Notes under the pieces: generated by a model
Seen by the model: only the letters and a program-made list of their open reading frames with translations
The model's database searches: none
Told to the model about the DNA's origin: nothing
Shown here: positions 6,880 to 33,656 of the stretch, one piece after another
How the letters are laid out: every line of letters starts with the position of its first letter
Numbering within the stretch: position 1 is the stretch's first letter
Source of the DNA: Candidatus Curtissbacteria bacterium RIFCSPLOWO2_02_FULL_40_11
GTDB taxonomy: Bacteria > Patescibacteriota > Microgenomatia > Curtissbacterales > GWA2-41-24
Assembly (NCBI GenBank): GCA_001776505.1
Contig: MFBV01000032.1
Span: forward strand, 1-53,558
Length of the DNA stretch: 53,558 bases
Direction of reading: 5' to 3'
Translations under genes and position numbers: made by a program

Positions 6880-9057
6880 ATGGCTATAGCCGATATTGTT
6901 GGCCGATTTATAAAAAAAGAGTCTGAAGAAGAAAACAACTTTCTTTCTCTCTCGTTAACTCCCGACAGGGTCCTGGCTACTATTTGGGCACTTGAAGGAG
7001 AAAAGGTTGAAGTTTTAGGATTTTCAAGAAAATCTTTTCAAAACATTGATAGCATTATTCACCAATCAGCTATAGCGATAGATGCTGCTGCCGAGAAGGC
7101 AAAAAGCGACGTTTCGCAAGTTGTGTTTGGTCTTTCTAGCAGTTGGTTTGACGATGGGAAAATTAAAAAAGACGCAATAAAACTTTTAAAAAAACTTTCT
7201 CAAGAGCTCGAGCTAGACTCCCAAGCATTTGTACCGCTAGCATCATCTATTAAAAACTATTTGAAATATGAAGAAGGAGTTACACCTCATGCTGTATTAA
7301 TTGGAGCTTTTAATGATTCTTCTGAGGTCCATTTACTTAAAAACAACGAGGTCGAAAAGACGCTAGAATCAAGGAGCAAACCTACTTTCGAAAAAATATC
7401 AGAGTTAGTTAAACAATTAGGAGATGAAAAAGATCTTCCGCTAAAAATAATTGTTTTTGGTATCCCAGATGATTCCCGGTTAGCAGAAGAGATACAGAAA
7501 CACGAGTGGAGTGGTACTTTTATTCACAAACCGAAAGTCGAGTTTTTAAAAAATAGGGATGTTTCAAAATCTGTTGCTTTTGCGCAAGCAACAGATTTTT
7601 TAGGCCACGAATTGTCTCAGGCGCCAACGGCTACAGCTCCAATTGTTAAACTTGGCGATATTGCCGAGAAAAAATTATCTTCAGAGACTGGCGAACTTGG
7701 ATTTATAGAAGACGAGGATATCCTCAAGAAAAATGAAGAGACGCAACCAGCAGAGAAGGAAACTACTCATCACGAAACACAGGAAGACCTAGCGGTCGAA
7801 GTTGACCAAAATGTTAAACAAGCAGAACCTACTGCAGTAATGCATGAGTCACCTAAAAAAGAAAAGGGGAGTCTCATTGAAAATATTGCAACGTTGGGTT
7901 GGTTCTCTAAATTAACAAATATTTTTAAAGGTCCGGGGGTCGCTAAAAAGTTAGGTATGGGTATTGCTATACTTATGGTTTTGGGGTTAGTGGGGGTGTT
8001 TATGGCAGGTAGAACACTCACTAGTGCAGAAGTAGTAATCAAAGTCAATGCGCAGTCTCAAGAGGAAAGTTTCGATGTAAATGTAATTAAAGGAGCATCA
8101 TCAGATTTTTCAAAACAACAAATTGGCGGACAAGAAATAATAGGCGCGGCTACTGGGAGTCGCAAAGCGGTAGCTACTGGAACTAAAGAACTGGGTGAAC
8201 CGGCCAAGGGCGAAGTAACTATTTTCAATTGGACAACATCAGAGACAACTTTTTCTCCAGGGACAGTTATTATTTCAAAAAACGGTATTAAGTTTGAACT
8301 AGATGGAGATATTTCTGTAGCTTCACGAAGTGCTTCGACCCCAGGAGAATCCAATATAGCTGTTATTGCAGTCGACTTCGGATCTGAAGGCAACGTGGGT
8401 GCAGGAACAGATTTTACGTTCCAAGAATTCGATGAGCTTCTTTACTCCGGAACTAATGAGAATTCATTTTCAGGTGGAGATGAAAAAGAAGTGACCGTTG
8501 TTTCACAAGAAGATTTGGATAAATTAGAAGAATCTTTGCTTGAGACCCTAGAGGAAAATGCAATTTCTAACCTTAAAGAAAAACTGGCCGGTAAAACATT
8601 TTCCGAAAGTAGCATAGATATCGAAGTAACCAAACGAGTTTTTGACCATGAAGTTGATAAAGAGGCGTCTCTTGTGAACCTCGATATGGGAGTTGAAGCA
8701 ACAGCCATAGCATATAGCGACGATGATCTTAAAAAATTGCTTGCAGAAAATGTTAAGGAAGATGCACCCCAAAACCTAGAGGCAAAAGCAGACGACATCA
8801 GATTATTAAGCGTTGATGCCGCAATTACATCTAGGGGTTTAAATCTCACAGGAAATTTTGAAGCAAAATTTGTACCTAAATTCGAAGAAAATGATCTTAA
8901 AGAAAAAATTGCTGGCAAAAGTGTGAAGAAAACACGCGAAATAATTAAAAGTCTACCAGAAGTTTCTGATGTCAGCGTAAACTTCTCACCGAGTTTTTTC
9001 TTTGCAAGTACGTTACCGATTAACAAAGAGAAAATTACATTTAAGGTCGAAACGTAG
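6880..9057 (+). CDS. large membrane protein, cytoplasmic N-terminal domain plus mid TM plus extracellular beta-rich domain
   Basis: 725-aa ORF with TM LGMGIAILMVLGLVGVFMAG near residue 350; C-terminal half resembles baseplate-J-like beta-rich proteins (weak recollection only). Confidence 0.55.
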   Translation: MAIADIVGRFIKKESEEENNFLSLSLTPDRVLATIWALEGEKVEVLGFSRKSFQNIDSIIHQSAIAIDAAAEKAKSDVSQVVFGLSSSWFDDGKIKKDAIKLLKKLSQELELDSQAFVPLASSIKNYLKYEEGVTPHAVLIGAFNDSSEVHLLKNNEVEKTLESRSKPTFEKISELVKQLGDEKDLPLKIIVFGIPDDSRLAEEIQKHEWSGTFIHKPKVEFLKNRDVSKSVAFAQATDFLGHELSQAPTATAPIVKLGDIAEKKLSSETGELGFIEDEDILKKNEETQPAEKETTHHETQEDLAVEVDQNVKQAEPTAVMHESPKKEKGSLIENIATLGWFSKLTNIFKGPGVAKKLGMGIAILMVLGLVGVFMAGRTLTSAEVVIKVNAQSQEESFDVNVIKGASSDFSKQQIGGQEIIGAATGSRKAVATGTKELGEPAKGEVTIFNWTTSETTFSPGTVIISKNGIKFELDGDISVASRSASTPGESNIAVIAVDFGSEGNVGAGTDFTFQEFDELLYSGTNENSFSGGDEKEVTVVSQEDLDKLEESLLETLEENAISNLKEKLAGKTFSESSIDIEVTKRVFDHEVDKEASLVNLDMGVEATAIAYSDDDLKKLLAENVKEDAPQNLEAKADDIRLLSVDAAITSRGLNLTGNFEAKFVPKFEENDLKEKIAGKSVKKTREIIKSLPEVSDVSVNFSPSFFFASTLPINKEKITFKVET

Positions 9058-14378: not shown

Positions 14379-17300
14379 GTGGCTAATCGAACCTATTGGG
14401 GACAAATAAAAAGCACAAATCTTCCATCCCTTGATCTGGTTAAAATTCAGAGGGATTCATTCGATGATTTCTTGGAAAATGGTATCCAAGAAGTCTTAGA
14501 TGAAGTTTCTCCAATTGACGATTTCACTGGCAAAAATTACACACTAGTTTTCGGAAAATATAGCATCGGCAAACCTAAACACACTCCGGAAGAGGCTCTG
14601 AAAAAAGGTGTCACTTACGATGCTTCCCTAAAAGTAGAAGCAACAGTTATCAATAAACAAACTGGTGTTAAAAATTCGCAGGAAGTATTTTTGTGCGATT
14701 TACCTATCATGCTCAAAAAAGGAGCGTTCATAATCAACGGTATTGAAAGAGCTGTTGTTACTCAGTTGGTACGAGCCCCGGGCGCTTATTATTCTGCAGA
14801 AATTGATCCTTCTTCGGGGAAAATGCTTTACAGTTGTGAAATCCGTCCACTCCGAGGTTCTTGGTTAGAGTTTGCTATCACAAAAAATGATATCATCACC
14901 GTCAAAATAGACAGACGAAGAAAGTTTCCGGTCAGCACATTTTTGCGTGCAATAGGTTTTTCCGAAACCGAACAAATTCTTGAACTCTTCAAACCAATCC
15001 TCAACGAAAACTCCCAAAAACTTTTAAACAACACCCTAGAAAAAGACACAACCGAATCTCAAGAAGAAGCGCTGCTGGAAATTTATCGAAGAATGAGGCC
15101 AGGTGATCATGTCATATTAGACAATGCCAAAGCCTTAATAGAAAATATGTTCTTTAATCCAAGAAGATATTCGTTGGGTAAAGTTGGTAGGTACAAAATC
15201 CAAAAACGGCTGAAAAGGCTAAAAGAAAAACTTTCTGAGAGCGAAGAAAATAAAACTAGCCAAGTACTGACAACCTGGGATTTTGTCTCTTCTATTGCTT
15301 ATCTTTTCGAATTAATAGCCGGTAACGGTAGGCTCGATGACATTGATCATCTCGGTAATCGTCGTCTCAGGAGAGTAGGTGAACTCGTTGCTCAAAATGC
15401 ATTCAGAATCGGAATACTCAGAATTGAAAGAGTTATTAAAGAAAGAATGAGTCTGACACCAATAGAAGAAGATATACCTTCTCCAACAACTCTTATCAAT
15501 GCCCGGCCAATTATTTCTGCAATCAATGAATTTTTTCGCTCCTCGCAACTTTCCACAATTTTAGATCAAACAAACCCACTTTCCGAAGTGGACAATTTAA
15601 GAAGATTAACAGTAATGGGTACTGGTGGAATCGCGAGAGAGAGAGCAGCATTTTCTATTAGAGACATTAATCATTCTCAATACTCCCGAATTTGTCCAAT
15701 CCGCTCACCGGAAGGCCCAAATATTGGGTTAGTTACTTACATGTCTTTGTATTGTAGAGTAAACGATCACGGATTTTTAGAAGCACCCTATAGAACAGTG
15801 GTAAAGGAAAAAGGTGGCAAAGCCAGAGTAACAGATGAAATTGTATATTTAACAGCAGACGACGAAGAGGAATATGCAATTACTCATGCTCAAGTTCCTC
15901 TTGATGATAAAGGTTATTTTGTCGATGATCGTGTGCCGGTAAGAAATAAAGGGGAATTTACAACAGCTTCAAGCAACGAAGTTAATTTTATAGATGTTGT
16001 TCCGCGTCAAGTAGTGGGTACATCGGCATCACTAATTCCATTTTTGGCACATGATGAGGCAAACCGAGCTTTAATGGGTACTCACATGCAGTGTCAAGCA
16101 GTCCCCCTTCTTTTACCGGAATCTCCCATCGTAGGTACTGGTATGGAGGAAGTAGTTGGTACGAATATGGGTAGAGCAGTACTAGCGCCGGAAGATGGCA
16201 CTGTTACTTATGTAGACAGTAAGAAAATTATTTTTAAAACTAAAGCTAATGGAAAATCTCCGAGTAAAACTGTAACTGTACCTATTCAAAAATTCTCCAG
16301 ATCACCTCAAAGCACTTGCTACAGCCAAAGACCAAAAGTAGAAATGAGTCAAAAATTTAAAAAAGGCGATATATTAGCTGACGGTACCGCAACAGATGGG
16401 GGGGAACTTTCTCTAGGCAAAAACCTGAATATTGCATATATGAGTTTTGATGGTCTTGGTTATGAGGACGCTATTGTCATTTCCGACAGACTCGTTAGAA
16501 AAGATACTCTTACTTCCATCCACATAGAGGAATATGAAACATCGGTAGTTGAAACTAAATTAGGACCGGAAGAAACAACCAGGGATATCCCAAATGTTTC
16601 AGAAGAAGATCTGGCAAATCTTGATGAAAATGGAATTGTTGTTATGGGAGCAGATGTAGGTCCAAACGATATTCTAGTGGGTAAGATTGCTCCAAAAGGT
16701 GAAACAGAACTAACCGCAGAAGAAAGATTATTGAGAACAATTTTCGGCGAAAAAGCCAGGGAAGTAAGGGATACATCACTTAGAGTTCCTCATGGAGAAA
16801 AAGGGACAGTAATTGATATAAAAATTCTAGCTCGAGATAAAGGTGACGAATTAGAACATGGAGCACTCAAGAAAATAATTGTCAAAGTTGCGCAAATGCG
16901 CAAAGTTGTTGTTGGAGACAAATTAGCAGGTCGCCACGGTAACAAAGGTGTAATTTCCAAAATAGTTCCGGCAGCCGATATGCCATATATGGAAGATGGA
17001 ACTCCGATCGACATAATTATTAGTCCTCTCTCAGTTTTATCAAGAATGAATTTAGGGCAGCTTCTTGAAACACATTTGGGTTGGGCCGCAGAAAAACTAA
17101 ACTACAAAGTTGCCTTGCCTGTTTTTGAACACGTGGACGAAGAGAGAATTGACAGCGAACTAAAAAAAGCAGGTCTTCCAACCGATGGAAGGACTACCCT
17201 TTACGATGGGCGTACTGGTTTAGAGTTTGACAGACCAATTGTAATTGGCAAAGCGTATATTTTGAAACTAATTCATATGGTTGAAGATAAGACTCATGCT

Positions 17301-17750: not shown

Positions 17751-20700
17751 ACGAATTAATCGACTTTGATTCCTTAAAACTAACACTTGCTTCGCAAGAC
17801 GACATTAAAACATGGTCATTTGGAGAAGTTACTAAACCAGAAACGATTAACTACCGAACATTAAAACCGGAAAAAGATGGACTGTTCGATGAGAGAATCT
17901 TTGGTCCGACTAAAGATTGGGAATGCTACTGCGGAAAATACAAAAGAATTAGATACAGAGGCATAATTTGTGATAAGTGTGGCGTTGAGGTTACACAATC
18001 ACGTGTAAGAAGAGAAAGGATGGGGCATATTACGCTTGCTGCTCCGGTAGTCCATAGCTGGTTCTTCAAAGGAAGTCCTTCTAAACTAGGCTTACTACTC
18101 GATATTTCTCCAAGAAGTTTGGATGCAGTAGTTTACTTTGCATCATATTTGATAATTGAGGTTGACGACGAAAAGAAAAAAGACGTTCTCAAAAAATTAC
18201 AAGCAGAACTCGAGAAAAAACGTAAAGAACAGCAAGTTTTACTAAAACAAAAATTAGATGAAGAAGAAAAAGCAACCAAAAAAGAAGTCACACAGATGAA
18301 GTCCAAAGGAAAAGTAAAAGAGCAAACAGATATTAAGATCGAAGAATTACAGCTTAATATGAGACAAAGGCAAGCTCATCTTAGGGAAGAATCTTCTCGG
18401 GAGATATCACGATTAGAAGAAATATACAAAAACATTATGGATATGGTCAAATCTGTTAAAGTATTTGATCTTCTAAGCGAAGAGGAATATCTAAAATTAT
18501 ATGATTACAACGCTGAATCATTTCTTAAAGTCGGCATGGGAGCAGAGACAGTTCTAAAAGCACTAGAAAAATTTGATCTCTCCAAATTGGCACTTACACT
18601 AAGAGAAGAAATCGCCAGTTCAACCGGCCAAAAACATATCAAGGCGACTAAAAGATTGAGAGTTGTTGAGGGTATGAGAAAAGCCGAGCTTTCACCAAAC
18701 TGGATGATTATTAAAATTCTACCAGTACTACCGCCGGATTTAAGACCTATGGTGCAGCTTTCAGGTGGTAGATTTGCAACATCCGACTTAAACGATCTTT
18801 ACAGAAGAGTAATTAATAGAAATAACCGACTCAAGAAATTAATTGAACTTGGTGCTCCGGATATTATTCTTAGAAATGAAAAACGCATGCTTCAGGAGGC
18901 AGTGGATGCGCTCATTGATTCGCAAAGAGTAAAAACTACTCGTGCTTCACAAGAGCTCAGATCACTTTCTGATATGCTTCGCGGCAAGCAAGGTAGATTT
19001 AGGCAGAATCTTTTAGGTAAAAGAGTTGATTATTCTGGTAGGTCAGTTATAGTAGTCGGTCCGGAACTCCGCTTAAACCAAGCTGGTATTCCTAAAGAAA
19101 TGGCACTCGAAATGTTTAAACCTTTTATTCTAAGAGAAATAATTGCACGGGGATATGCACCAAATGTTAAAAGCGCCAAACATTACTTGGAGCGAAGAAG
19201 TAGTGAAGTATGGGATATTTTAGATGAGATAACCAAAAACCACCCAATTCTTTTGAATCGCGCCCCCACATTGCATAGATTAGGTATCCAAGCATTTTAC
19301 CCAATATTAATTGAAGGCAATGCCATACGAATTCACCCATGTATTTGTGCCGGGTTCAATGCTGATTTTGACGGCGACCAAATGGCAGTGCATGTTCCTC
19401 TTTCAGAAAAATCTAAGGAAGAAGCACATAGATTGATGTTGGCTGCAAGGAATTTAGTAAGACCATCCGACGGTTCACCAATTACTTTACCAAACAAGGA
19501 AATGGCCCTAGGTGCTTATTACTTAACCTCAATAGACGAGAAGCTTCCCGATTACGATAGCATCTTTGCAGATGAAGATGAAGTGTTATTGGCCTTAAAC
19601 ACTGAGAAAATTGCTCTGAGACAAAAGATCAACGTGTTTATTGGTAAAAAAGTAATTTTAACAACTACGGGAAGAGTTTTGTTTAACAAACAACTGCCCC
19701 AAAGTATGCGATTTATCAATGAAACAATTTCTGCCGGGAGGATAAAACAGCTCATTAATGTTGCTATTGATAAATTCCCGGAAGAAGAAGTCACGGATCT
19801 TATAGACCGACTTAAAGAGTTAGGTTTTGAAGGTGCGACACACTCAGGGCTTTCTGTTTCGGTTTTTGATTGTATGATTGTTGACGATAAGGAGAAGATT
19901 ATTCAAAAAGCAGATAAAGAAGTCGAAGGAATAGAGAAGAATTTCAGCGTCGGTTTGATCACTAAAGATGAACAAAAGAGGCTTTCGCAGGAAGTTTGGT
20001 TGTCTGTTACCAATGAGCTTGCCGATTTAACATGGAGGAGTTTAAGAGAAGATAATTCGATAAAAATTATTTCCGATTCAGGTGGTTCTAGGGCAACTGC
20101 TGAACAGATAAAGCAACTTTCAGCAATGAGAGGATTAGTCACCGATCCTTCGGGGCAAATTGTTCCACTTCCTATTAAGTCTAACTTCAGAGAGGGTCTT
20201 TCAGTTTTTGAATACTTTACAAGCGCTCGTGGTGCGAGAAAAGGTCTTGCAGACAGAGCTATTAAAACTGCAGAATCTGGTTATCTAACAAGAAGATTAG
20301 TTGATGTTGCACATGATGCCATTATTAGGCTTAAAGATTGTGGTACTAAAGAAAGTATCGTTGTTTCAAAATCAGATAAGCGACAAATGCCGTTTACTTT
20401 AAGATTATTCGGAAGAGTTGTTGCTGACGATATTAAATCACCTAAGGGTAAAAAATTATTAGTAAAAGCGAATACTCTTTTAGAAGAAGAACACGTTAAA
20501 GCAATCGACGAGGCAAATGTAGAAGAAGTAAATATCAGATCACCTCTCATCTGTGAAGCCAGATACGGTTTGTGTGCCCTGTGTTACGGGAGAGATCTGG
20601 TTAGCAGAGAGCTTGTTTCTATTGGTACCCCAGTTGGAGTCATTGCAGCTCAATCTATTGGAGAACCAGGCACCCAGCTCACCATGAGAACATTTCATAC

Positions 20701-21478: not shown

Positions 21479-21575
21479 AATTTAATTTGAATCTAGCTTT
21501 GCTTGTTCAAATTTTTCCTATAAGGGAAAGAGGAATATTAAGGAGAAAACCGTAGGTTGTCTCCTTAAAGTAGTT
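21479..21575 (+). promoter_or_regulatory. conserved structured leader/operator, copy 1 (upstream of rpsL)
   Basis: About 85 percent identical to 41447-41547; hairpins TTTGAA..TTCAAA, TTCCT..AGGAA, AAGGAGA-AACC-GTA-GGTT-TCTCCTT. Confidence 0.75.
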
Positions 21576-22076
21576 ATGCCAACAGTAAATCAATTAGTAA
21601 GATACGGCAGAAAATCGAAAGAAAAACGTATTAAAGCCACGGCTCTTCGCCGAGCTTTCAATACAAACACTAATCGATATGTTTTTTACCCATCACCTCA
21701 AAAAAGAGGAGTTTGTGTAATTGTAAAAACAATGACTCCCAAGAAACCAAATTCTGCACTTCGAAAAGTTGCTCGAGTTCGACTGTCAAACAAACAGGAG
21801 GTTACAGCGTACATTCCTGGTATGGGTCATGAGCTTGCGGAACATTCTATTGTAATGGTACGTGGGGGAAGAGTCCAAGATTTACCGGGAGTGAAATATC
21901 ACATTGTTCGCGGTAAATACGACACTACCGGTGTTGCAAATAGAAAGCAAGGCAGATCACTATATGGAACTAAAAAATCTGGAGCGGTAAGTACAACTCA
22001 AGCAGCAGTATCTGCAGGAGCTTCTGTTGCAACTCAAGATCAGCCTAAACAAGAATTAGCGGGAGGAGAATCATAA
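21576..22076 (+). CDS. rpsL: 30S ribosomal protein S12 with about 30-aa C-terminal extension
   Basis: [37 protein letters not shown] motifs. Confidence 0.97.
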
Positions 22077-22573
22077 TGCCAAGAACAGGTAAAGTTGAAA
22101 GAAGAAAAACTTCCCCAGATCCTCTTTATCAAAATCTATTAGTTGCAAAACTTATTAACAAAGTTTTGAAACAGGGCAAAAAAACCATTGCTCAAACTAT
22201 AGTTTATGAATCTTTCAATAATATTCGGGCCGGCGGCAAAGACCCACTGCAAACTTTTGAAAAGGCTGTAGAAAATGCTACCCCTAAAATGGAAGTAAGA
22301 CCTAGGCGTGTAGGTGGTGCTTCTTATATGGTGCCGATGGAGGTTAGAGGACCTCGTCGCCAAGCTCTTGCTCTAAATTGGCTTATTACAGCAGCCCGAA
22401 ATCGCCAACTACCAGAAGTAAAAGATCGGCCAAAAAATAAACCAGTTATGATAACCAAACTTTCACAAGAAATACTGGACGCTGCCAATGGTGAAGGCGG
22501 AGCAGTTTCCAAAAAAGCAGAAATGCACAGAATGGCAGAAGCGAATAAGGCGTTTGCCCACTTTAGATGGTAA
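22076..22573 (+). CDS. rpsG: 30S ribosomal protein S7
   Basis: PDPLYQN, VEVRPRRVGGASYMVP, MAEANKAFAHFRW. Confidence 0.97.
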   Translation: MPRTGKVERRKTSPDPLYQNLLVAKLINKVLKQGKKTIAQTIVYESFNNIRAGGKDPLQTFEKAVENATPKMEVRPRRVGGASYMVPMEVRGPRRQALALNWLITAARNRQLPEVKDRPKNKPVMITKLSQEILDAANGEGGAVSKKAEMHRMAEANKAFAHFRW

Positions 22574-23065: not shown

Positions 23066-23819
23066 AAGGGACGGTCCTTGAAAAAGTTGTTATATCAACC
23101 TAAATCAAGCAATTTTATTTAGTTTTAGCCCTCATATATTTCTTTTGTGCATATGTAGCAAATTTAACGTTCCCCATTACAGCCTCTTCCTTCTCAAATA
23201 ATTTTTCAATAGCACTCAAATCCTCTGAAATTCCGTTAATGATAAATTTCTCATATTCCTTCCTTGAGTTTTCAGTTTTCCCAATCAATCTAATGATATT
23301 TTTATCAAGGAAATGGAGTTGTTCTTTACCAAGAGCTTCTCTGATACTGCTGTATTTGTAATCTAATGGATTTTTGGCTAAGTTAGCTTTAACCGGATTT
23401 AGGTAGATATACTGGGAAAGTTTTAAGAAATATGAATCATTTTCAATGAGGATACTTTTAAATCTGTTTTGAAACACAGGTCCGAAGTGTTCATATTTTC
23501 GATTGAAATACATTGAATAACTTGTTCCCAAGGACGCCATTATCTTTGAGATTGGAACTTTGCGCGTCTGAATCGAAATATGGAAATGGTTTGGCATTAG
23601 ACAAAAAGCATAAAGAGAATGGTCGTACTTGTTTTTTAAGTCATTAAGTTTTCTTAAAAAGAATTGATAATCAGGTTCTGAAATAAAAATAGGTTGTTTG
23701 TTGATGCCCCTATTAAAGACGTGATAGAAAGCATCTGTGAATACGAACCGTGCGCCTCTAGGCATAGAATGTATGTTAATTTTAGCCTATTGCATGAGGC
23801 TTTTCAAGGACCGTCCCTT
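23066..23819. mobile_element. minimal IS200/RayT-like unit: Y1 transposase gene bracketed by perfect 19-bp inverted repeats
   Basis: AAGGGACGGTCCTTGAAAA at 23066-23084 and its exact reverse complement at 23801-23819; each repeat contains a small imperfect palindrome. Confidence 0.8.
23115..23765 (-). CDS. HUH Y1 transposase, IS200-like / REP-associated (RayT-like, COG1943)
   Basis: YHVFNRG, HUH motif LMPNHFHI, catalytic-Tyr context YIYLNPVKANL. Confidence 0.85.
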   Translation of the reverse strand: MPRGARFVFTDAFYHVFNRGINKQPIFISEPDYQFFLRKLNDLKNKYDHSLYAFCLMPNHFHISIQTRKVPISKIMASLGTSYSMYFNRKYEHFGPVFQNRFKSILIENDSYFLKLSQYIYLNPVKANLAKNPLDYKYSSIREALGKEQLHFLDKNIIRLIGKTENSRKEYEKFIINGISEDLSAIEKLFEKEEAVMGNVKFATYAQKKYMRAKTK

Positions 23820-23875: not shown

Positions 23876-23964
23876 CCTCGCTTGTCGTAGTTGAAAAACC
23901 TTAACGATTTCTGATCTAATGGAAATTAGGTAAAAAAACTTGTCCTGATAGGCAACGACGAAGA

Positions 23965-24231
23965 ATGGCAATAACACGCACACAAAAATTAAAACAGCTA
24001 AAGGTAAAGCTTCACGATCTTGAAGAAGTTAAGCTAAAAGATGCACTTGCAAAATATGGTGAAGCTTATCAAGATTCGGGTGGAGCTTGGCAGGAAAATG
24101 CCGCTTGGGAGCTAGCAGACGAAGAAATTTCTGTTCTTCGTGCTATGATTCAAGAAGTCAAAAAAGAAATTAAGGCATTGGAGAACCCATCCTCAATATC
24201 CACTACTGCCAAAAATATAAAATCCAAATAA
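23965..24231 (+). CDS. Gre-factor N-terminal coiled-coil-only protein (no C-terminal globular domain)
   Basis: GGAWQENAAWELADEEISVLRAMIQEVKKEI aligns with the GreA tip and helix 2 ([30 protein letters not shown]); 88 aa in total. Confidence 0.5.
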   Translation: MAITRTQKLKQLKVKLHDLEEVKLKDALAKYGEAYQDSGGAWQENAAWELADEEISVLRAMIQEVKKEIKALENPSSISTTAKNIKSK

Positions 24232-24241
24232 AAATTTTACT

Positions 24242-24571
24242 ATGCCTAAAGAAGCTGGACAACAGCAATATTGTATTACAATAGATCGAGACCAGGTGCC
24301 TTCAATTAGTGTCCTAGAAGCTGTATCAGAAGTTGCACTATTAGGCGCAATCAGATTAGTTGAGCTTCTTCCCTACATTGATGCAAAAAACGATGAAACT
24401 TTTCAAAAATTCAAGTCTGACGTAAAAAAGATTATAGCAATGGCGATTATGTCCCTCGAGGTGCGTTTCGTAAAAGGTAGAGGCTGGGAAGTTCCAGAAG
24501 ATCATCCGATGGTAGACCCTTTGAGTTTAGAAGAAATGAAATCACGAGCAATTCAAATCCATCAAATCTAA
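24242..24571 (+). CDS. hypothetical protein (island gene 4)
   Basis: 109-aa ORF with no recognisable motif. Confidence 0.45.
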   Translation: MPKEAGQQQYCITIDRDQVPSISVLEAVSEVALLGAIRLVELLPYIDAKNDETFQKFKSDVKKIIAMAIMSLEVRFVKGRGWEVPEDHPMVDPLSLEEMKSRAIQIHQI

Positions 24572-24576
24572 ATATT

Positions 24577-24654
24577 ATGGCGGACAAAACAAACAGACTT
24601 TATCCACTCGACCAAATCCGCAATAAATCAGAGGAGACTAGAAAATACAATTAG
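24577..24654 (+). pseudogene. ghost fusA 5' end (16 codons) fused to unrelated sequence
   Basis: MADKTNRLYPLDQIRN vs live [16 protein letters not shown] (13 of 16 aa, 31 of 48 nt); diverges exactly before the G1 motif and stops after 25 codons. Confidence 0.8.
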
Positions 24655-24662
24655 AGACAACA

Positions 24663-26801
24663 ATGAAGGATAAGACTACAAGACTCTACCCATTAGATAG
24701 AATAAGAAATATCGGAATCATTGCCCATATCGACGCCGGAAAAACAACAACTACAGAACGAATTCTTTTTTACACTGGAAAAACTTATAAACTTGGCAAC
24801 ATCGATGAAGGTACAACCATCACCGATTGGATGGCTCAGGAAAAAGAAAGAGGAATTACTATTGTTTCAGCAGCTGTCACAACATTTTGGAAAGCAAAAA
24901 GCGGTCCTTATAAAGATACCGATACCAGGATAAACATTATCGATACGCCGGGGCACGTTGACTTTACAGCCGAAGTCGAACGGTCGCTGCGTGTACTAGA
25001 TGGAGGAGTGACTGTTCTTGATGCAGAAGAAGGAGTTCAATCACAATCGGAAACCGTTTGGCGCCAAGCCGACAAATACAAAGTACCCAGAATTTGCTTC
25101 ATTAACAAGATGGACAAATTAGGAGCAGATTACTTCGCAACTCTCAAATCAATTCGTGATAAATTAAATGCTCCGGCAGTTCCCTACAATTTACCAATTG
25201 GTACCGAAAATGATTTCAAAGGTGTTGTCGACCTACTTTCACAAAAAGCTTATGTCTGGGAAACGGGAGTGGACGGTACTGGGAAAGAATTTAAAGAAGT
25301 AGATATTCCCCATGATATGAAGGCAGATGTTGAAAAATACAGAAATGAACTCATAGAAAAAATCGCGGAAACAGATGATACTCTTATAGAAAAATATCTT
25401 GGCGGTGAAACAATAGAAATTGATGAACTCAAAAAAGCCCTCAGAGGAGCGGTCATCAAGTACAAAATTGTTCCGGTTATGGCAGGTTCTTCTCTAAGAA
25501 ATAAAGGTGTTCAACCACTCCTGGATGCGATTGTTGAATATCTGCCTTCTCCCAAAGATATAGAAAAAGTTGAAGGTGAAAATCCCAAAACCAAAGAAAA
25601 AGAGACTCGAAAATTAGTAACAGAAGAACCGTATTGCGGCTTAGCTTTTAAAATACAAGTCGATCCTCATGTTGGAAAACTTACATTTGTGAGAGTATAT
25701 TCAGGTACTTTAAAATCCGGATCTTCAGTCACAAACACTACTAAGAGCAAAAAAGAAAGAATCGGCAGAATACTTCTGATGCACGCAAATACCAGAGAAG
25801 AAATACAGGAGGCATATGCCGGAGAAATCATTGCAATAGTCGGTCTAAAATCAACAGCCACCGGGGATACCCTCTGCGATGATCAACACCCTTTAATTCT
25901 CGAGTCGATCACATTTCCCGATCCGGTCATATCGCTTGCTATCGAACCAGAAACAAAATCCGATCAAGAGAAATTAGGTTATGCCCTTGGACGTCTGGCC
26001 GAAGAAGATCCGACTTTCAAAATTAAAGGCGATCCGGAAACCGGACAGACAATAATTTCCGGGATGGGCGAACTCCACCTGGAAATTATTGTTGACAGGA
26101 TGAAGCGTGAGTTTTCTGTAAACGCTCAAGTCGGTCGTCCTCAGGTAGCTTATCGGGAAACTATCAAAAAAGAGGCAAATGGCGAAGGTAAGTATATTCG
26201 TCAGTCAGGCGGGCGCGGGCAGTATGGACATTGTTTCTTAAAAGTAGAACCAAAACCAAGAGGAGAAGGTTACGAGTTTGTCTCTACTATTAAAGGTGGG
26301 GCAATTCCTTCAGAATTTATCCCGTCAATTGAAAAAGGTGTCATAGAAAAATTGGATCAGGGAATTCTAGCAGGTTACCCACTGGTCGACATGAAAGTTA
26401 CAGTTTATGATGGAAGCTTTCATGAGGTTGATTCTTCGGACATTGCCTTCAAGATTGCAGGGTCTATGGCTGTCGAAGATGCCGCCAAAAATGCCCAGCT
26501 TACGCTTCTCGAGCCGATTATGAAGTGCGAAGTTACAGTTCCGGAAGACTTTATGGGAGACGTAATTGGAGATCTTTCAAGCAAACGTGCCCAAGTCCAT
26601 GGTACTGATCATCATGGAAACAGTGTAATTGTTAACGCTTTAGTACCCCTTGCCGAAATGTCAGGTTACGTTACAACCTTAAGATCAATGACCCAAGGCC
26701 GCGGATCCGTCTACCTTGAACCCTCCCACTACGAAGAGGTACCAACGAATATAGCTGATAAGATAATCTCCAAAGTTAAAGGAGAAAAAAGCGAATCCTA
26801 A
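24663..26801 (+). CDS. fusA: elongation factor G
   Basis: [24 protein letters not shown] and domain IV/V blocks. Confidence 0.98.
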
Positions 26802-33037: not shown

Positions 33038-33656
33038 TCCGATAGGTTTTCGAATAGGTAATGTATACACATGGAGCTCCCGTTGGTTTGCAAGAAAAGG
33101 AGATTATTCAAAAAATCTCCTTGAAGACTATCAGATAAGACAATTTCTTATGACTAATTTGAAATCAGCTGGAGTTTCAAAAGTAGAAATAGAAAGATTT
33201 TTCGATAAAAAGACTATCACGATTCACGTTGCCAGACCAGGAGTAGCCATTGGTCGAGGAGGAGCTGGAGAAAAACAACTAAAAGCAGAACTGGTTAAAA
33301 AATATAAAATAAAGGATTCAGGGAAATTAGAAATTAAATTCTCTGAGGTAAAATCCCCGGATCTAGATGCTTACTTAGTAGCGACAAACATTGCAGATCA
33401 ACTTGAAAAAAGATTTCCATTTCGAAGAGTCATGTATCAATCGCTAGAGAGGATCAAAAGATCAGGAGCCAAAGGTGCAAAAATTTCTATTGCCGGAAGA
33501 CTTGGAGGAACAGAAATTGCACGCAGAGAAACAATAAAAGATGGAGCTGTACCACTGCATACAATCCGCGCAAGAATTGACTTTGTAAAAATCGATGCCC
33601 AGATTCCAAAAGCCGGGATAGTCGGTGTAAAAGTATGGATATACAAAGGAGATTAA
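33021..33656 (+). CDS. rpsC: 30S ribosomal protein S3
   Basis: MGQKVNPIGFRIG, KH domain, GRLGGTEIAR. Confidence 0.98.
   Translation: MGQKVNPIGFRIGNVYTWSSRWFARKGDYSKNLLEDYQIRQFLMTNLKSAGVSKVEIERFFDKKTITIHVARPGVAIGRGGAGEKQLKAELVKKYKIKDSGKLEIKFSEVKSPDLDAYLVATNIADQLEKRFPFRRVMYQSLERIKRSGAKGAKISIAGRLGGTEIARRETIKDGAVPLHTIRARIDFVKIDAQIPKAGIVGVKVWIYKGD

Follow-up and report, generated by a model that had tools for sequence, protein, structure and literature searches.

Why should the gene for an essential translation factor be preceded by a second copy of its own first codons? The question is raised by fusA, which encodes elongation factor G (EF-G), in a stretch of DNA of 53,558 nucleotides (the window; contig MFBV01000032.1) from Candidatus Curtissbacteria bacterium RIFCSPLOWO2_02_FULL_40_11. 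The genome to which the window belongs (G000; 938 kb, 45 contigs) has relatives labelled Candidatus Curtissbacteria, in the candidate phyla radiation (CPR), among them a sister of the same genus, G001. EF-G is essential and the 5′ end of its gene is among the last places where an insertion is expected. The explanation that we favour, with moderate confidence, is that the extra start, here called the ghost, is the lineage's own original fusA start, displaced by a cassette that entered between codons 16 and 17.

The ghost occupies 24577–24624 on the forward strand and reads ATG GCG GAC AAA ACA AAC AGA CTT TAT CCA CTC GAC CAA ATC CGC AAT (MADKTNRLYPLDQIRN). Codon 16 is followed by AAA TCA GAG GAG ACT AGA AAA TAC AAT TAG (KSEETRKYN and a stop), giving a 25-codon leader open reading frame (ORF; 24577–24654, +) whose TAG at 24652–24654 stands 8 nt before the fusA ATG. 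The live gene has 712 codons (24663–26801) and is separated from the ghost by an insert of 38 nt (24625–24662, +). Ghost and live start share 13 of 16 residues and 31 of 48 nucleotides, with 12, 13 and 6 identities out of 16 at codon positions 1, 2 and 3. Ten of the 17 differences are at third positions, where the two are near saturation, and the similarity ends exactly ahead of the G1 motif. The ghost and the main features of its match had been pointed out in a reading made from the sequence alone, which had also asked whether so short a match could be due to chance. It could not readily: the next-best 16-residue match in a six-frame translation of the whole window has 7 identities, and the best match in each of 30 window shuffles has 6–8. 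The ghost as observed was thereby confirmed, together with its coordinates and details.

An assembly artefact, with two alleles of the fusA start from a metagenome set in tandem, was considered. Contigs of metagenome-assembled genomes from mixed populations can be chimeric, and in genome G002 the contig breaks just past orf88, the gene that precedes fusA in this family. The sequence at 24232–24760, however, recurs without a single difference in 10 places that stem from separate samples and assemblers (ENA, JGI and NCBI), and the junction is matched at 100% by a further, independent contig from JGI, L067. Public assemblies contain the orf88 protein in 61 blocks; the 10 places compared are those that were listed. 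As the same layout also recurs, with signatures of selection, in nine other lineages from different studies, the probability of an artefact is negligible. The G002 contig (L011, 2725–2803) diverges directly after the orf88 stop into another ORF (MKRRDVVFIDG..) and then ends, and fusA was not found in the G002 assembly.

Comparison with G001, in which fusA is uninterrupted, shows which of the two starts is native. The G001 start agrees with the ghost at 40 of 48 nucleotides and 14 of 16 residues, and with the live start of the window at only 30 of 48 nucleotides. The G001 gene is therefore an example of what the sequence-only reading had asked for, a fusA closer to the ghost (40/48) than the resident gene is (31/48). 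Just past codon 16, fusA is 84–87% identical to its counterpart in G001, and over the whole gene 79%, comparable with rpsG (78%) and rpsL (80%); if the live start were an orthologue of the G001 start at 80% identity, a score of 30/48 would have P = 0.004. The 86 nt at 24625–24710, comprising the 38-nt insert and the 16 live codons, have no counterpart in G001. Since the G001 start matches the ghost and not the live start, the ghost would be the native start and the 86 nt downstream of it the newcomer. Judged by these alignments, it is this DNA, and not that upstream of the ghost, that is the foreign piece. The replacement start, live codons 1–16 (24663–24710, +), is non-orthologous and would be cassette-borne, while the body of the gene from the G1 motif onwards (24711–26801, +; Pfam GTP_EFTU and EFG_II/III/IV/C; mean nucleotide identity to G001 79%) is resident. 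Genome G009 is without exactly the unit between two AAT codons, and its live start is the ghost-type peptide of its sisters L069 and L075.

The sequence-only reading had assigned the parts the other way round: the ghost was the fusA start of a donor and marked the right-hand junction of an island of about 2 kb (orphan ORF, Y1 transposase, orf88 and orf109), the donor had carried this cargo directly upstream of its own fusA, and the live start was resident. The gene order in the window is rpoB, rpoC, rpsL (21576–22076), rpsG (22076–22573), orphan ORF, Y1 gene (minus strand), orf88, orf109, ghost, fusA, tuf. With the Y1 unit 95–100% and orf88 about 90% identical to G001, against 78–79% for rpsG and fusA, the region does look like a recently shared block that ends near the ghost. 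However, rpsG-orf88-fusA is the gene order of the family, and at each family locus examined orf88 is the gene immediately preceding fusA, its stop being only about 2–15 nt from the fusA ATG in most ghost-free genomes. As this holds family-wide, orf88 is resident and not island cargo. Nor does its 90% identity require transfer, because in each of the three close pairs of genomes the nucleotide divergence of orf88 is about half that of fusA. The highly similar Y1 unit, with inverted repeats at its ends, forms a module of its own. The ghost stands at the position of the native start and its 40/48 identity fits core-like rather than block-like divergence; the live start is non-orthologous to that of G001 although it leads into a closely matching body. 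Finally, the same junction is present in the nine other lineages, with orf88 directly upstream of the ghost in the three that could be resolved (G005, G017 and G024). The island and its donor are therefore very unlikely.

The junction is not confined to this genome. The same layout is found in G005, G017 and G024, family genomes from different genera, so that 4 of the 32 species genomes of the family have it, and a scan of public genomes and metagenomes with the junction pattern brought the total to ten distinct Curtissbacteria lineages. Three matches outside fusA (L061–L063) were due to chance. Viral contigs gave no match to the pattern and hence no sign of phages carrying the cassette. The four family genomes all have the ghost at the native-start position just after the upstream ORF, which is orf109 in G000 and orf88 in the others. 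Throughout the ten lineages the similarity stops after an AAY at codon 16, the next bases being A-N-ATCAG, and a second ATG follows 38–121 nt on, opening 16–17 fusA-like codons that run into the G1 motif. The typical order is ghost, palindrome, Shine-Dalgarno (SD) motif, new start, and then the junction after codon 16. One public record with this arrangement (L059, CAZBKB010000002.1), titled 'uncultured Gammaproteobacteria bacterium', has ghost, insert and live start identical to those of G017, and its label is probably wrong.

A tree was built from the 600 nt past the junction. The lineages with a ghost are scattered on it; well-supported branches force at least six changes of state (parsimony, 9), and the clustering of ghost states is no better than in shuffles. 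Close relatives, moreover, differ sharply in their cassettes. Between G005 and mgL068, identity is about 99% over orf88 and the ghost, as read from the alignment by eye, and 93% over the fusA body, whereas the stretch from the hairpin loop through the spacer and the 16 live codons is only about 62% identical. For mgL069 and mgL075 the flanks are about 87–90% identical and the hairpin is common to both, but the spacer and live start are 60% identical. Pairs of cassettes are 56–74% identical overall, uncorrelated with the similarity of their hosts. When ghost and live start are compared within a genome over their last ten codons, the first, second and third codon positions agree in 71, 97 and 39 cases per 100, and the 39% at third positions equals the background between genomes. 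Third positions at this background imply that each of the two was a functional gene head during their divergence. All the ghosts look recently displaced, and only that of G017 has decayed (SSYSLDRTRN).

These data bear on a second explanation, by which the fusA head was duplicated in situ long ago, in the family ancestor or several times, was maintained by selection as a regulatory leader peptide and was lost repeatedly by recombination between the 48-nt repeats, with no horizontal movement of a cassette. The ghost peptides do keep a conserved motif, as the 97% identity at second positions shows, and the leader frame is always open. Spacer motifs (ATATTGCTT... and GAAAGGAG) are common to cassettes across genera, and loss by recombination between repeats would leave a ghost-type start such as those of G001 and G009. 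Against this, close relatives whose fusA bodies are 87–93% identical have cassettes only 60–62% identical, with sharp boundaries, and the hairpin interiors belong to different subfamilies according to lineage, that of G000 being inverted. The decayed G017 ghost still has an open frame, so what is conserved cannot be the peptide sequence as such, and the tree demands its six or more changes of state. On balance an old duplication with rapid local divergence seems unlikely. A simple tandem duplication was rejected, as the sequence upstream of the live ATG is unlike that upstream of the ghost ATG, and so was derivation of the 38 nt from a displaced orf88 tail, the C-termini of orf88 proteins (...KSK/SKQ) being unlike KSEETRKYN. 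Translational bypassing from AAT to AAT, in the manner of T4 gene 60, was dropped because a complete second start makes it unnecessary, and a diversity-generating retroelement because adenines are not singled out by the differences and no reverse transcriptase lies close by.

At its core, the insert consists of a dispersed palindromic repeat. With the G005 copy as query (E ≤ 10), there were 31 matches in G005, 19 in G000, 10 in G017 and 8 in G024. BLAST located about 13 full copies in G000, together with fragments, in both orientations and in AT-rich intergenic DNA. The ends of the element are conserved (TATATCAG-CAGGTCGCC ... GGCGCTCC-TCTGATATA, with termini TATATCAG ... CTGATATA), as is the hairpin, while the interior of the stem varies between copies with pairing kept by compensatory changes; folding energies range from -9 to -37 kcal/mol. 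The arms are asymmetric and a pattern search for a perfect palindrome gave no match. An Rfam search of three ghost-bearing loci (E ≤ 1) gave no family. As the flanks of the element are AT-rich and its termini palindromic (TATA...), a TA or AT target duplication would be indistinguishable from the ends of the element itself.

At fusA the element has the same orientation in nine lineages and the opposite one in G000. What is left of it in G000 is a terminus, AAATCAGAGGAG (24625–24636, no strand assigned), from which the hairpin has been lost and which lies where the other nine lineages have a full element. About 7 copies of the element in the genome share ATCAGAGGAG as their conserved terminus; the window has one exact match to it, at this position. 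The folding energy of the remnant is 0.0 kcal/mol, the junction as a whole has no structure beyond that of shuffles (z = 0.08), and no SD-like motif is present in the 38-nt insert.

Two further observations on the repeat were made. The motif TTGCTTGT occurs just past the palindrome in fusA cassettes (in the spacers of L025, L028, L065, L069 and L076) and also in the rpsL leader of the window, at 21497–21510; in L065, L069 and L076 it takes the form of the close variants TTGCTTAG/TTGCTTAT/TTGCTCAT. On contig C6 of G000, 33060–33270, there is a cluster of nested and adjacent palindromic elements of two kinds, resembling a bacterial interspersed mosaic element (BIME).

How is fusA translated behind such an insert? 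In 10 of 10 lineages the ghost ORF is open across the insert and its stop falls in the interval from -13 to +14 nt around the live ATG; stop and live start overlap in L076, as TAATG. Over 229 codons the ghost frame contains 0 stops, compared with 15 and 11 in the other two frames. Most native fusA starts abut the orf88 stop, and an SD-like motif precedes 3 of 23 native starts but 9 of 10 cassette starts (p = 5e-5). The live start of G000 is the sole cassette start without one, there being no SD-like tetramer at -18 to -4. We infer from this pattern that the displaced head is maintained by selection as a leader ORF, which would carry ribosomes through the insert to the new start. As G000 has neither hairpin nor SD motif, its fusA probably relies on termination-reinitiation from the 25-codon leader. 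The suggestion of the sequence-only reading that a 25-aa upstream ORF might couple fusA translation gains support in this way, the support being comparative.

It is also conceivable that the ghost has the same origin and no role at all, a neutral scar behind which the expression of fusA is independent (a promoter-like TACAAT or the TGATATATT at the end of the element being possible signals for it) and the frame is open by inheritance from a stop-free element. The right terminus of the palindrome, CTGATATATT, resembles an extended -10 promoter (TGnTATAAT), nine of the ten cassettes bring their own SD motif, the upstream chain of ORFs is broken in the L067 variant, and the lineages are not independent of one another. 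On the other hand, those parts of the inserts that vary (interiors of hairpins, a second hairpin nested in that of L069, divergent spacers) are likewise stop-free in the ghost frame only. Stops also cluster at the live ATG, with TAATG and ATGA overlaps at two different genes, and G000 lacks both SD motif and structure before its ATG. A scar without function is thus decidedly unlikely.

The second of these genes was found by scanning the whole genome. An FAD/NAD oxidoreductase gene on the minus strand of contig C18 of G000 (about 16595–16666, L085) is preceded by a 14-codon ghost head, ..GGSAA. Its insert is a mini-hairpin of 26–29 nt (CGCC..AAGGCGAGGCTCGCTGA.C) that ends CTGA(T/A)C and is followed by the new head. 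Ghosts are present at the same codon in G000, G002 (L087) and G025 (L104), from two genera, and in all three the leader stop overlaps the live ATG as ATGA. G001 is without a ghost at this gene, and its live head resembles the ghost of G002.

Mirror-image ghosts of 3′ ends were also seen in G000. On the minus strand of contig C26 (reverse-complement 18990–19190) the end of rplL, ..ANEAKTKLEAAGAKVELK, is followed about 95 nt later by ..ANEAKTKLEGAGAKVELK, and on the minus strand of contig C44 (reverse-complement 8435–8580) another gene ends in ..CNYCAYNSICPFSLAKIT, with ..CVYCAYKSICPFSLAKP coming after it. The sortase and ruvX ghost sites of the window were considered as instances of the same event and set aside; no element termini are present there and the event is of a different kind.

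If the ghost is the displaced original start, the following sequence of events can be proposed. The cassette would have entered at AAT|ATY, just before the stretch coding for the G1 motif, which is conserved at the nucleotide level, and would have consisted of a copy of the hairpin-forming palindromic repeat, a spacer of about 35 nt with an SD motif, and a diverged substitute for fusA codons 1–16. EF-G would now be made from the substitute start, while the old start, right behind the upstream ORF, would begin a short leader ORF, open across the insert as far as the new start. The G000 cassette would since have decayed, leaving 12 nt of one palindrome terminus and neither hairpin nor SD motif, and ribosomes would most likely reach the fusA ATG by termination-reinitiation at the leader stop 8 nt upstream. 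The source was plausibly DNA of another Curtissbacteria lineage, acquired by recombination. Its right side could have been joined by homology in the conserved G1 region, and its left side at an AATAT microhomology with the element terminus or, once such alleles existed, through homology with the ghost. Homology with the ghost would let the allele both spread and be lost by ordinary recombination.

A bolder version of this proposal is put forward tentatively, as we consider it rather doubtful. It holds that hairpin, SD motif and substitute head together form a self-propagating miniature mobile element of a new class, which would invade the first codons of essential CPR genes, survive by bringing a replacement head and move between lineages, the displaced head being recycled as a coupling leader. 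Movement might follow a cut specific to the hairpin or palindrome (AAT|ATT in fusA, GCC|GG in the oxidoreductase gene) or be effected by a Y1/HUH enzyme. A role in forming the ghost for the neighbouring gene, which resembles those of REP-associated tyrosine transposases (RAYTs; REP, repetitive extragenic palindromic), was not supported, since element copies and Y1 genes do not co-localise.

Several observations weigh against displacement by a mobile cassette with a coupling leader. The element remnant in G000 is short, at 12 nt. Copies of the element adjoin none of the 8 Y1 genes of G000, and no enzyme is tied to the element. No empty-site variant is present among the 10 listed assemblies of this population. 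No pair of cassettes more than 74% identical was found, so that no recent transfer from host to host has been caught. The product of the per-lineage shuffle probabilities for an open ghost frame, about 3e-7, is overstated, as the ten lineages share the element and ancestry. Lastly, orf109 is put out of frame in the strain variant L067 by a deletion of 41 nt (about 24389–24429), so that about 110 nt ahead of the ghost ATG go untranslated; coupling from ORF to ORF is thus not strictly kept, and the ghost ATG, which has no SD motif, may need initiation of its own there.

The neighbouring genes can be described briefly. The product of orf88 (23965–24231, +; 88 aa) is GreA_N-like (Pfam GreA_GreB_N, E = 0.0012; N-terminal part of NCBIfam greA, E = 1e-4, below cut-off), making orf88 a free-standing gene similar to the N-terminal domain of GreA. 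An orphan ORF of 109 aa, orf109 (24242–24571, +), follows it and stops 5 nt before the ghost ATG. It has no Pfam or NCBIfam match, and no relative in 60 genomes beyond a 19-codon stub in G001 (L010, 2739–2798) whose two ends are in frame; a conserved protein is probably not encoded. The Y1 transposase unit (23066–23819, minus strand; gene 23115–23765) is RAYT-like (Pfam Y1_Tnp, E = 1e-12; NCBIfam REP_Tyr_transpos, 71.5 bits, below the cut-off of 80), one of 8 Y1_Tnp genes in the 938 kb of G000. It is bounded by perfect 19-nt inverted repeats at 23066–23084 and 23801–23819, which are unique and differ from the palindromic element. Other assemblies (L115, L119, L123 and L124) have strain-level breakpoints at the ends of this unit (23058/23066 and 23830) and at 23964. 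In genome G028 (L027, 1740–2030) the spacer between orf88 and fusA is 275 nt long and contains a different pair of hairpin repeats, its own SD motif and a short ORF starting MTQTAD, which may be a much shorter ghost head followed by ..CTGCTGAT.

Should the proposed displacement be correct, ultra-small CPR genomes would tolerate, and repeatedly acquire, insertions in essential genes without introns or inteins, by means of a spare gene head. This would explain the synonymous ghost gene termini that recur in these genomes, and the lineages would form a natural series of leader-ORF and start arrangements, with and without hairpin and SD motif, in which termination-reinitiation could be tested. For annotation, short ORFs that resemble the N-terminus of the next gene would be displaced starts, and not evidence of islands or of mis-called start codons.

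None of the known systems compared is matched in full: neither an integrase nor an att core is present, the repeats fall short of near-identity, the element has no GTAG or CGTC head and there is no linkage to a RAYT. The copy in G000 is a decayed member of a recurrent cassette type, of which no description was found in a limited literature search. Integrative elements that bring a substitute gene end include e14 and phage 21 in icd of E. coli, and phages and integrative and conjugative elements in tRNA genes. As in the e14/icd type, the target gene at fusA is kept functional by a diverged copy of its terminus, the old terminus remains as a ghost and the copies differ mostly synonymously. The fusA insert, however, measures 86 nt in G000 and no more than 172 nt in the other lineages, not kilobases, and has no integrase and no ORF besides the leader frame. 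Its junctions have no identical att core beyond AAT/AATAT, it is built on a dispersed palindrome, and its ghost becomes a leader that abuts the new start.

Insertion with long target duplication was reportedly described by Nobusato et al. in 2000. Such insertions lie between direct repeats of more than 30 bp, the target being present once in relatives; they have no transposase or integrase and occur mainly in naturally competent bacteria (Furuta, Abe and Kobayashi 2010, PMC2853133). The published repeats are nearly identical (e.g. 44/46) and flank restriction-modification genes (PMC2853133). The 48-nt repeats at fusA are likewise single-copy in G001 and G009, but they are only about 65% identical (31/48; live start against the G001 target, 30/48), the insert is without a gene and the same site is used in many lineages.

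REP sequences and the REPINs formed from them, which are associated with RAYTs, are short, dispersed, hairpin-forming and mostly extragenic palindromes, numbering tens per genome, with a GTAG or CGTC head, that flank a usually single-copy RAYT (Bertels and Rainey 2011, PMC3116915; PMC5581495; PMC3733652). The fusA element is similarly a short imperfect palindrome, dispersed (8–31 matches per genome at E ≤ 10 in four genomes) and mostly intergenic, in genomes that also have Y1 genes with inverted repeats. It differs in that its heads are TATATCAG and not GTAG or CGTC, its copies do not flank Y1 genes, and G000 has 8 Y1 genes and not one. To our knowledge, REPINs do not carry or duplicate a gene head. 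The terminal inverted repeats and multiple copies of the element recall miniature inverted-repeat transposable elements (MITEs), although no cognate transposase of the kind expected for a MITE was linked to the element copies.

Rickettsia palindromic elements (RPEs) are inserted in frame in genes and translated within the host protein. Like them, the fusA element is a palindromic, selfish-looking repeat that is tolerated, stop-free, in the frame of an essential gene of a reduced genome; unlike them, it ends the old frame and a second start comes after. In termination-reinitiation, the stop of an upstream ORF lies near or overlaps (ATGA, TAATG) a downstream start that has no SD motif of its own. 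The arrangement in G000, with TAG 8 nt before ATG and no SD motif, is of this kind, as is the placing of the stops within -13 to +14 nt in all ten lineages. The fusA leader would differ from known leader ORFs in being a fossil of the regulated gene's own head, made by an insertion, and its coupling to fusA is suggested by comparative sequence evidence.

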